A stretch of 64,000 nt of DNA from an uncultured Gammaproteobacteria bacterium (GTDB lineage Bacteria > Patescibacteriota > Microgenomatia > UBA12405): NCBI GenBank assembly GCA_964463925.1, contig CAYXDV010000001.1, positions 12,276 through 76,275 on the forward strand, given 5' to 3'. How positions within the stretch are numbered: position 1 is the first letter of the stretch; every line of letters starts with the position of its first letter. Shown here in pieces: positions 829 to 9,247 of the stretch. The position numbers were made by a program, and so were the translations under genes. The notes under the pieces were generated by a model. It was not told the DNA's origin. It did no database searches and saw nothing but the letters and a program-made list of their open reading frames with translations.

Positions 829-878
829 TTTTAGTTAAATAAGTAACTTAATAGATTTGTTGTTAAAGTTCTGAGTCA

Positions 879-899
879 AAAAAACCCGCCAAAGCGGGG
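879..899 (-). terminator. rho-independent terminator for the minus strand
   Basis: Hairpin CCCGC-caaa-GCGGG followed on the minus strand by a U-run (plus-strand aaaaaa at 879-884). It lies downstream of the 1047-1613 gene and upstream of rplJ. Confidence 0.5.
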
Positions 900-1046
900 T
901 GAAACAAACACTATGTTGCTTACCTCGGTAGGATAATTAAATCAGTTGCCTGATCCCTACTGTCTTTGGTTAGGATAGAGGATTATAATTGGTTTTTTCA
1001 GAAAAGGCAAGAAGATTCTTCGAGATTTTGCCGCTTTTGTGTTAAT

Positions 1047-7295: not shown

Positions 7296-8258
7296 TTATT
7301 TGTCTAAATTTGTTTGAATTATAGCAAAAGCTTCAAATAATAGATTGGAATTAGTTTCTGGTTTACTGGCAAGGCCTGCTAAGCTGCTTCCGGCCACGGC
7401 TCCAAAAGTGTTGGCTCTTTCATCAAATCCTTCATAAGGATCATTGAATCCGCTACTAGTTCCTTGGCCGCTTTGAATTGGACGCAAGCTGCTAAACAGC
7501 TCGTATATTTTGCCAAGGGAGATAGCTATCCGCTCTCCATTGGTTGCTCTGGATGTAAACATGGAAGCTAAATCAACTAAAAGTGGGTAACTGTCTTTTG
7601 GCCACAAATTATGAGTGGTGGAATACTCAATTTGATGGGCAAAAAATAGGGCACTGAAAAAATGCTGAGAACGGTCGGCACCGGAATAGGTGTGGGCCAG
7701 CTCGGTATTGTTTGGTTTTAAGCCCTGTGGCGAAGGAATCGGAAAGATGTGGGGAACTTTTTGCCAGTGCTTGTCTAAAACAAAAAGTCGGTTGGAAAAG
7801 AAAAAAATACCAAGGCTTTGGATGGCTAAATTTAGCACTTCTTCGACTGGGATAACCTTACCTGGAAAGTCATTTTGTAGAACCGATTGGCTGGCTTCGT
7901 AAGCATAAGTTAAATAGTCTCGGACAGTGTAGGGTTTTTGTGGTGCCAGTCGGTCCAAAAAATGGTTTCTAATTAGGTTGGCAGTTTTGTTGCAAGTAGG
8001 CAGGTGATCGTACAAATATTCAGCGTGAGCCTGTGGGTGGAAAACATCAACCAAGGGAGGGGTATCTTTGGTTAAGTTCCAACCTGGTTCGGGAAAAGCA
8101 TGGGGTTGATAATTTTGTTTTTCTGAGAATAGTTTTAATAATTTGGCTGTTTCTCCGCTGGCATAAGAACCAAGGCCCAAAACAGTTAATTTACCTCCAA
8201 GTTGTAGAAATTTGCGTCGAGTAAGAGGGGGAGATTGCTCTCTGTTTTTAGCTAACAT
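7296..8258 (-). CDS. hypothetical exported protein with a twin-arginine (Tat) signal peptide
   Basis: N-terminus ...PPLTRRKFLQLGGKLTVLGLGSYASG matches the S/T-R-R-x-F-L-K Tat consensus. 320 aa with no recognised catalytic motif. Confidence 0.6.
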   Translation of the reverse strand: MLAKNREQSPPLTRRKFLQLGGKLTVLGLGSYASGETAKLLKLFSEKQNYQPHAFPEPGWNLTKDTPPLVDVFHPQAHAEYLYDHLPTCNKTANLIRNHFLDRLAPQKPYTVRDYLTYAYEASQSVLQNDFPGKVIPVEEVLNLAIQSLGIFFFSNRLFVLDKHWQKVPHIFPIPSPQGLKPNNTELAHTYSGADRSQHFFSALFFAHQIEYSTTHNLWPKDSYPLLVDLASMFTSRATNGERIAISLGKIYELFSSLRPIQSGQGTSSGFNDPYEGFDERANTFGAVAGSSLAGLASKPETNSNLLFEAFAIIQTNLDK

Positions 8259-8276
8259 TTGCTATAATTTTACATT

Positions 8277-8726
8277 ATGTTGTGCCCATACTGCGGATTT
8301 GATGAAAGTAACGTTTTGGAAAGTAGGGATGCAGTGGATGGAAAAGCGATTAGACGAAGACGAGAATGTGTAAAATGCCATAAAAGATTCACAACTTATG
8401 AGGAAGTAAAACAAATTGATTTGAGAGTGATAAAACGTGATGGGGAAATTGAGGACTATAGCCGTGGTAAACTGGAAAAATGTTTTGACAAGGCTTGCTG
8501 GAGAAATACTCCAGAAGAAAGGGCAAAATTTGTGGAGGAGGTCGAGATGAAACTTTTAAATTGGCCAAGTGTGGAGATTCCCAGCGCGGAAATTGGTAAG
8601 CTGGTGATGGAGCTACTAAAGCGGGTAGACGATTTGGCTTATATCCGCTTTGCCACAGTATTTTTGCGACTAGATAAAGTAGAGGATTTTGAGAAGTTGG
8701 TAAAAAAGTTTAAAAAGAGAAGCTAG
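8277..8726 (+). CDS. nrdR: transcriptional repressor NrdR
   Basis: N-terminal zinc ribbon (MLCPYCGFDESNVLESR...CVKCHKRFTTYE) followed by an ATP-cone. Confidence 0.9.
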   Translation: MLCPYCGFDESNVLESRDAVDGKAIRRRRECVKCHKRFTTYEEVKQIDLRVIKRDGEIEDYSRGKLEKCFDKACWRNTPEERAKFVEEVEMKLLNWPSVEIPSAEIGKLVMELLKRVDDLAYIRFATVFLRLDKVEDFEKLVKKFKKRS

Positions 8727-9247
8727 TTTAAGTCTCGATAAACATCTTTTCGATACTGAATGCTAAAGATTAAGATGGAACTTTGGTAGGTGATATAAAC
8801 AATTCGATATGGCCAAGCACGCAAGGAAAATTTTCCTTGATGGATTCTTAAAAGCATCTTGCCAAGATAAGGGTTTTTATTTAGTTGCTCTAGTTTTTTA
8901 GGACTTTTTTGGATTCTGCTTTTGGAAGAGATTGAAACTGTTTTTTGCTTTCCTGGGTGAAGTACATCTTCCAAAGTATATAACTTTCCTAGTTTGATTT
9001 CTTGCTCACTCTTGGCAATAGATTGCATTAATTTCTTGTCAGAGACAATTTCTAAAGTTTCAACCAAAGATTCGTACTGTTCGTAGGAAAGTAAGACCGC
9101 CTGGGGCCTGCCGGAAACGTTGATGGTAATAGTATTGCCCAAAGAGTTGACCTGATTAACTAGATTAGGCAGTTGAGAACGGATAGTACTAATGGGCATA
9201 ATTTGATTCATAATCTGTTGTACAAAATTTTGTACACTTTTGCCCAA
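8723..9247 (-). CDS. single ORF encoding a Phd/YefM-type antitoxin domain fused in frame to a RelE/ParE-type toxin domain
   Basis: N-terminal half PISTIRSQLPNLVNQV...ITINVSGRPQAVLLSYEQYESLVETLEI is Phd/YefM-like. C-terminal half ...LGKMLLRIHQGKFSLRAWPYRIVYITYQSSILIFSIQYRKDVYRDL is RelE-like. There is no stop or ATG between them, and an A6 run sits at the junction. Confidence 0.6.
   Translation of the reverse strand: MGKSVQNFVQQIMNQIMPISTIRSQLPNLVNQVNSLGNTITINVSGRPQAVLLSYEQYESLVETLEIVSDKKLMQSIAKSEQEIKLGKLYTLEDVLHPGKQKTVSISSKSRIQKSPKKLEQLNKNPYLGKMLLRIHQGKFSLRAWPYRIVYITYQSSILIFSIQYRKDVYRDLN

Follow-up and report, generated by a model that had tools for sequence, protein, structure and literature searches.

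Does an open reading frame (ORF) that runs without interruption from a Phd/YefM antitoxin into RelE-like sequence encode a true fused toxin-antitoxin (TA) protein, or is it the remnant of two genes? This question is raised by a locus in a 64,000-nt stretch of contig CAYXDV010000001.1 (assembly GCA_964463925.1), from an uncultured bacterium of GTDB lineage Patescibacteriota; the whole of this stretch is referred to here as the window. A first-pass annotation, made from the sequence alone, had reported an uninterrupted 174-codon ORF at 8723-9247 and had read it as an in-frame fusion of a YefM/Phd antitoxin and a RelE toxin. The ORF is indeed present: on the minus strand, 174 codons extend without a stop from a TTG at 9247 to a TAG at 8725-8723. 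Its interpretation is another matter. We think it likely that the locus is a canonical two-gene Phd/YefM + RelE/ParE type II operon in which the toxin gene is one A short (A7 to A6, at 8894-8899), and our verdict is that it is a disrupted module of this kind or else the product of a homopolymer assembly error.

Frame structure of the locus and its closest relatives

At the antitoxin end of the ORF, PF02604 (Phd/YefM) matched residues 15-86 and profile positions 2-73 of 74 with 48.1 bits (cut-off 29.8), and TIGR01552 scored 42.3 bits against a cut-off of 20.8; this half of the fusion was correctly recognized in the first-pass annotation. With its domain above the curated threshold, the antitoxin is, on sequence grounds, a member of the Phd/YefM family, and it is the only component detected by NCBIfam models. 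The toxin end is incomplete. ParE_toxin (PF05016) matched the ORF as given at residues 117-170 with 19.1 bits, below its curated cut-off of 23 bits, and the match was confined to profile positions 34-89 of 89, the first third of the RelE/ParE profile (positions 1-33) being absent. What had been taken for a RelE toxin domain is thus a RelE/ParE-like 3' part only. The portion missing from the fused product presumably comprises beta-strand 1, helix 1, and part of helix 2, judging from profile position and the general structure of RelE. The 3' part that remains is 45-54% identical to three toxins from protein collections (P0072, P0082, and P0125), and its WPYRIVY and YRKDVY motifs, which are common to homologues, align with Mycobacterium tuberculosis Rv2866 and E. 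coli RelE.

The missing N-terminus was found in the adjoining frame. Contrary to the statement that the ORF has no internal ATG or GTG, there are in-frame ATGs at codons 13, 17, 74, and 131, and a further ATG (8967-8965), out of frame with the ORF, overlaps antitoxin codons D94/V95 and opens a toxin frame of 25 codons. Related antitoxins terminate 3-13 residues past their 'EDV' motif, i.e., at the position of this toxin ATG. When scored against 500 shuffles, the alternative-frame peptide resembled the N-termini of four stand-alone toxins with z = 5.5-6.5, and the in-frame linker gave z = -0.6 to 2.0. Restoring one A produces an 81-aa ORF that matches ParE_toxin with 26.3 bits over profile positions 4-89, compared to 21.6 bits over positions 34-89 only for the in-frame version. 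In an alignment of this restored toxin with the four stand-alone toxins, residues K9, E18, K24, K25, and L29 were invariant (e.g., compare FKDSSYKQLKKLNKVEKNKVSKKLLALASDPY of P0125 with FTQESKKQFQSLPKAESKKVLKKLEQLNKNPY of the restored toxin), and tblastn placed the two toxin pieces in different frames. The top match of the restored toxin among solved structures was 3g5o_B (Rv2866; E = 0.004, residues 3-78), and E. coli RelE matched residues 3-74. Taken as homology evidence, these results indicate that the alternative-frame peptide is the toxin's true N-terminus and that the toxin belongs to the general RelE/ParE Pfam family. In the window, the toxin frame stops prematurely after 25 codons. A candidate lesion of another kind, a window-specific damaging G41R substitution in the toxin, was rejected, considering that Rv2866 and E. 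coli RelE carry Arg at or next to this position.

A closely related contig carries the two genes separately. This contig (L001, from SRR32910815, carrying the antitoxin P0002) aligns with the window over 1607 bp at 92.8% identity, showing 115 mismatches and a single gap, which is A7 in L001 versus A6 in the window at 8894-8899. L001 encodes an antitoxin of 111 aa (369-704) and a toxin of 81 aa (613-858), whose ORFs overlap by 92 nt. Its counterpart of the window's antitoxin tail goes on as TRAAK and then stops, the antitoxin ending in SPKKTRAAK. The L001 toxin begins at the same ATG as the fragment in the window, reads MYFTQESKKQFQSLLKAESKKVLKKLEQLNKNPYLGK...RKDIYRDLN, and matches ParE_toxin above threshold (31.2 bits) over the full profile. 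The comparison of orthologous loci that had been suggested as a check on the fusion therefore returned two genes. Further afield, two metagenome cassettes (L006 and L007) and L001 all keep the gene order of the window, in which the antitoxin lies directly upstream of the toxin and in the same direction. A second record of the window's own allele, a Logan contig from SRR12404947 (L002) that carries a protein identical to the window's (P0001), shows 100% identity to the window across 13,316 bp and has the same A6.

The first-pass annotation had drawn attention to an A6 tract exactly at the domain junction. This run (8941-8946) exists, but it is not the lesion, being identical in the intact L001. 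Read in the toxin frame, it specifies K8-K9 of 'ESKKQF', K9 being the residue invariant among homologues. Two more A6 runs lie downstream, at 8905-8910 and 8894-8899, and it is the last of these, 47 nt downstream of the run first named, that is polymorphic. The Lys-Lys that it encodes is invariant in homologues and is coded AAA AAA in L006, L007, and a more distant two-gene cassette (L003). Hence, the alternative offered at the outset, a slippage-prone junction or an indel, was essentially right in kind, since everything can be explained by one nucleotide more or less in an A-run, though at another site; putting one A back yields not a stop and start that abut but two genes with a 92-nt overlap.

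Protein-level searches were consistent with two genes. When 5.8 billion proteins were searched through a word index with the fused ORF as query, only the identical P0001 and the L001 antitoxin P0002 were returned, and the 81-aa toxin found no match in the same collection. An exhaustive search of 1.84 billion representative proteins with the fused ORF yielded 1039 matches; among the best 150 of these, there was no fusion family, but rather one L001 antitoxin, three stand-alone toxins, one protein (P0141) that matched both halves, and otherwise matches to the antitoxin part only. The stand-alone toxins are P0072, P0082, and P0125 (82-102 aa), which matched query residues 105-173 and left 16-26 of their N-terminal residues unmatched; P0125 (in L006) and P0082 (in L007) are each the second gene of a Phd/YefM + ParE_toxin pair, behind gaps of 9 and 6 nt, respectively.

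P0141 (191 aa, from high-GC DNA) was the only protein among the best 150 of the 1039 matches to align with both halves. Its N-terminus is of the Phd/YefM type and its C-terminal motif (YRIVYRI...GHRADIYRRR) of the RelE/ParE type, and the stretch between its domains is rich in Pro, Gly, and Arg with no recognizable toxin N-terminus. By its sequence, P0141 looks like an independent, frameshift-made pseudo-fusion of a like kind.

Origin of the long ORF

The arrangement in L001 suggests how a single ORF may have arisen. In the intact form seen there, the antitoxin ORF extends over the first 92 nt of the toxin ORF, in another frame. Loss of one nucleotide within this overlap has two automatic consequences: the toxin frame runs into a TAG after 25 codons, and the antitoxin frame comes into register with the downstream part of the toxin gene, which by definition stays open as far as the toxin stop. 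The long ORF is then the arithmetic outcome of a deletion in an overlap, for which no selection is required. Since the A-run codes for Lys-Lys in both frames, the product would read ...SPKK-LEQLNKNPY... and retain toxin residues ~24-81. Counted from the ATG at 9211, it would be a protein of 162 aa, i.e., an intact antitoxin with a C-terminal toxin appendage of 56 residues. Because the N-terminal third of the toxin is absent, the fusion product is expected to be non-toxic, and the appendage would probably be poorly folded. Judging from the homology of the N-terminus, A7, or an equivalent, would be the ancestral state and the window would carry a -1 deletion.

In an intact relative, the antitoxin dimer would bind a paired TGTACA operator and, via its C-terminal region, a RelE/ParE-type toxin, a mechanism grounded in established knowledge of the YefM-YoeB and RelBE systems. 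With the toxin disrupted, the function most likely to remain is that of the antitoxin as an orphan autorepressor acting on TGTACA-N6-TGTACA. Chromosomal TA modules are well known to lose their toxin while keeping the antitoxin, and this locus would be a further case of that known outcome, with the antitoxin under purifying selection.

Substitutions between the window and L001 bear on this point. In the antitoxin core there were 0 nonsynonymous and 11 synonymous differences (omega 0), compared to 5 and 6 in the toxin 3' part (omega 0.21), a difference in substitution counts with p = 0.035 by Fisher's test. The neighboring genes gave 5 and 38 for NrdR (omega 0.02) and 0 and 15 for a band-7 fragment (omega 0). 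The antitoxin is thus strongly conserved, and the toxin is less so, yet not neutral. This pattern fits a recent frameshift and an assembly error alike, and does not discriminate between the two.

Several observations weigh against a disrupted operon. The support for A6 is at the level of assemblies only, and L002, being 100% identical over 13.3 kb, may share sample or reads with the window and so provides at most an independent assembly, not an independent observation; an exact-sequence look-up of the adjacent NrdR, aimed at further samples of the strain, led to the SRR12404947 contig only. There is a single intact relative, L001, and the polarity from A7 to A6 rests on the homology of the N-terminus to more distant toxins rather than on a phylogeny. 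The overlap of 92 nt in L001 exceeds that in the nearest cassettes. Lastly, an omega of 0.21 in the toxin 3' part is well below 1, implying that the frameshift is recent or not real.

If the frameshift is not real, the organism would in fact have A7 and an intact, L001-like cassette, and the fusion would exist only in the assembly. We consider such a homopolymer sequencing or assembly error unlikely, though a serious contender. Single-base differences in homopolymers are the textbook kind of error, the 3' part of the toxin is undecayed and has no other lesion, the toxin-frame N-terminal ORF is wholly intact save for the shift, and the sole second A6 record may derive from the same reads. These points are countered by the agreement on A6 of the window's source assembly and the SRR12404947 Logan contig. 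In addition, runs of A6/A7 are short for systematic consensus errors, in short reads and HiFi reads alike, and an error-free k-mer assembly of 16.7 kb suggests accurate reads. On balance, the A6 state is probably real in cells.

If A6 is real, some full-length toxin might still be made through -1 frameshifting or slippage, or the run might toggle the toxin on and off between A6 and A7. We regard recoding or phase variation of this sort as quite improbable. It is true that the toxin frame (CTA AAA AAC TAG) contains a formal X_XXY_YYZ heptamer (A_AAA_AAC) directly before the stop, and that two related lineages differ at exactly this run. However, no downstream stimulatory RNA structure was found, the 116 nt folding like shuffled sequence (z = 0.01), and L001 is in frame, so a requirement for frameshifting is not conserved. 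The run itself is accounted for by the invariant Lys-Lys codons of AT-rich genes, written AAA AAA in L006, L007, and L003, and A/T runs of 6-7 nt are very common (265 in the window: 194 of length 6 and 71 of length 7, with 26 more of length 8). Moreover, known contingency tracts, and tracts that slip efficiently during transcription, tend to be longer than 6-7 nt. The stronger proposal, that the A6/A7 run in the antitoxin-toxin overlap serves as a heritable or a transcriptional/translational switch, is less probable still. Were it true, the main product of A6 cells would be an antitoxin-toxin(deltaN) fusion, accompanied by a trace of full-length toxin that arises when RNA polymerase stutters or the ribosome slips by -1 on A_AAA_AAC-TAG, A7 cells would make a normal TA pair, and a small-genome bacterium would possess a phase-variable or recoded TA module.

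An evolved fusion, with a tethered toxin neutralized in cis or freed by proteolysis, has hardly any probability left, as L001 and the frame analysis go most of the way to refuting it. In its favor are the unbroken reading frame, the retention of WPYRIVY and YRKDVY, conserved C-terminal motifs that align with RelE-family sequences, and the existence of fused TA proteins in other families (e.g., CapRel; PMC13423816). Against it, the toxin domain is below threshold without profile positions 1-33, its ~23 absent N-terminal residues are intact in the adjoining frame, the linker has no homology to toxin N-termini, the architecture is not kept even in the 93%-identical L001, and no family of such proteins was seen among the best 150 of the 1039 matches in 1.84 billion representatives.

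Whether the missing A was lost in the cell or in the assembly, the locus carries a caution. Where an antitoxin ORF overlaps the start of a toxin gene, any single-base indel in the overlap automatically creates a long 'fusion' ORF, which annotation pipelines will call as one Phd/YefM protein, as with the 162-aa P0001 here. Catalogues of fused TA proteins should be screened for such frameshift products. The 81-aa toxin of L001 (613-858), for its part, was missed by gene calling in the public collection, presumably on account of its 92-nt overlap with the antitoxin ORF, and toxins of this lineage are consequently invisible to protein-level searches.

Start codon and putative operator

The features of the locus are collected in Table 1. 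The window's mechanical ORF begins at a TTG, and its meaningful start lies further downstream. In L001, a change from CAACAG to CAATAG places an in-frame TAG within the leader, so translation must begin at the ATG at 9211, and the meaningful ORF is the 162-aa P0001. Gene callers place the starts of both P0001 and P0002 at this ATG, and antitoxin homologues begin 3-8 residues ahead of their 'LPIS' motif.

Table 1. Positions of the antitoxin, toxin, and regulatory features in the window
Feature	Position	Strand	Remarks
First 12 codons of the mechanical ORF (TTG start)	9212..9247	-	Noncoding leader/operator DNA, from the L001 TAG, gene callers, and homologues
TGTACA-N6-TGTACA, perfect 18-bp palindrome TGTACAAAATTTTGTACA	9219..9236	.	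Putative YefM-type autoregulatory operator
Phd/YefM antitoxin core (MNQIMPIS...YTLED)	8966..9211	-	ORF codons 13-94; PF02604, TIGR01552
Toxin 5' fragment MYFTQESKKQFQSLPKAESKKVLKN	8890..8967	-	ATG 8967-8965, 25 codons, TAG 8892-8890
Antitoxin C-terminal tail VLHPGKQKTVSISSKSRIQKSPKK	8894..8965	-	Antitoxin-frame reading of the toxin gene's 5' part
A6 run named in the first-pass annotation (gga aag caa aaa aca)	8941..8946	-	Same in the window, L001, and L002
A6 run, site of the 1-nt difference (CTA AAA AA-C TAG)	8894..8899	-	A7 in L001 (CTA AAA AAA CTA, Lys24-Lys25)
Toxin 3' two thirds, residues 26-81 (LEQLNKNPYLGK...RKDVYRDLN + TAG)	8723..8893	-	Now in the antitoxin frame

Upstream of the ATG, at a distance of 7 nt, is a pair of TGTACA hexamers that lie 6 bp apart, with their centers separated by 12 bp. 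This palindrome was found once in the window, compared to a chance expectation of 0.01, and its sequence is the same in the window, L001, and L002. An operator of identical layout has been described for yefM-yoeB, at up to 80 bp from yefM starts in diverse genomes (Kedzierska et al.; PMC1802561). The TGTACA-N6-TGTACA pair is therefore a plausible, though putative, YefM-type autoregulatory site in both lineages, as judged from its sequence and position. A scan for sigma-70 promoters and terminators found sites no more common than in shuffled sequence and none on the minus strand.

Another perfect 18-bp palindrome, CAAGGAAAATTTTCCTTG, occurs at 8822-8839, within the toxin 3' part, where it encodes QGKFSL. 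Its counterpart in L001 is CGGGGAAAATTTTCTTTG; it is not conserved and probably arose by chance.

Related modules and genomic neighborhood

Among known systems, the best structural match was to RelBE2/RelFG of M. tuberculosis (Rv2865-Rv2866; PDB 3G5O), which resembles the module in having an upstream Phd/YefM antitoxin and a small toxin of ~80-100 aa. Rv2865 is an antitoxin of the Phd/YefM family. The two nevertheless differ in that they show little sequence similarity, a frameshift divides the toxin gene of the window, and the ORFs of the intact relative overlap by 92 nt. With E. coli YefM-YoeB and Enterococcus Axe-Txe, the module shares a Phd/YefM antitoxin and an operator layout exactly as reported (PMC1802561), but its toxin is not of the YoeB/Txe type (TIGR02116, 13.5-15 bits versus a cut-off of 51.8).

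The closest toxins are those of the uncharacterized metagenome cassettes L006 (P0125) and L007 (P0082), which are 44-47% identical over the full restored length, N-terminus included, and have the same gene order and antitoxin family as the window. Unlike the window, these cassettes consist of separate genes with gaps of 6-9 nt and antitoxins of 88-90 aa, whereas the window combines a frameshifted toxin with an antitoxin frame that lacks a stop codon around the toxin start. Judged by these comparisons, the module is a divergent, damaged member of the Phd/YefM + RelE/ParE group, with a toxin 44-54% identical to its nearest relatives. Scans of genome and metagenome contigs (genome_contigs and metagenome_contigs) found no additional strains of this lineage, only L003 and L004, which are two-gene cassettes with distant RelE/ParE toxins behind 72-aa upstream genes (ribbon-helix-helix-like antitoxins). 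No relatives of the module were found in the viral_contigs and plasmids collections, and a paralogue search of the window found no second copy of either toxin or antitoxin.

EzeT of E. coli is a true fused toxin-antitoxin protein. Like the ORF in the window, EzeT and CapRel (PMC13423816) combine antitoxin-like and toxin-like sequence in a single ORF. Both, however, have complete domains, a conserved architecture, and demonstrated activity, whereas the toxin in the window is truncated in a way that a 1-nt indel explains.

The cassette is tightly wedged between two housekeeping genes, and the layout is the same in L001. The convergent nrdR (8277-8726, plus strand) and the minus-strand toxin/fused ORF have stop codons that fall in one shared CTAG (8723-8726), so they are not separated by any intergenic DNA or terminator-like site. 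On the other side, the TA operator starts just 13 nt past the stop of the band-7 gene. Next to nrdR, at 7296-8258 on the minus strand, is a gene for a 320-aa protein without a Pfam match, whose N-terminal RRKFLQLGG resembles a twin-arginine signal by eye; it evolves far more rapidly than the genes around it, its first 95 codons giving an omega of 0.61 against L001, compared to 0-0.02 for NrdR and band-7.

Elsewhere, the window contains a ribosomal protein L10 leader (RF00557, 57.7 bits; 869-987, minus strand) and five tRNA genes (22.4-34.0 kb), an ordinary housekeeping setting that is consistent with a chromosomal TA cassette rather than a mobile element. The GC skew of the plus strand is almost uniformly positive, typically 0.15-0.37 per 2-kb window, which is large for a bacterial chromosome; there is no switch point within the 64 kb, and the skew comes near zero only at 54-56 kb. 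GC content across the window is 34-46%.

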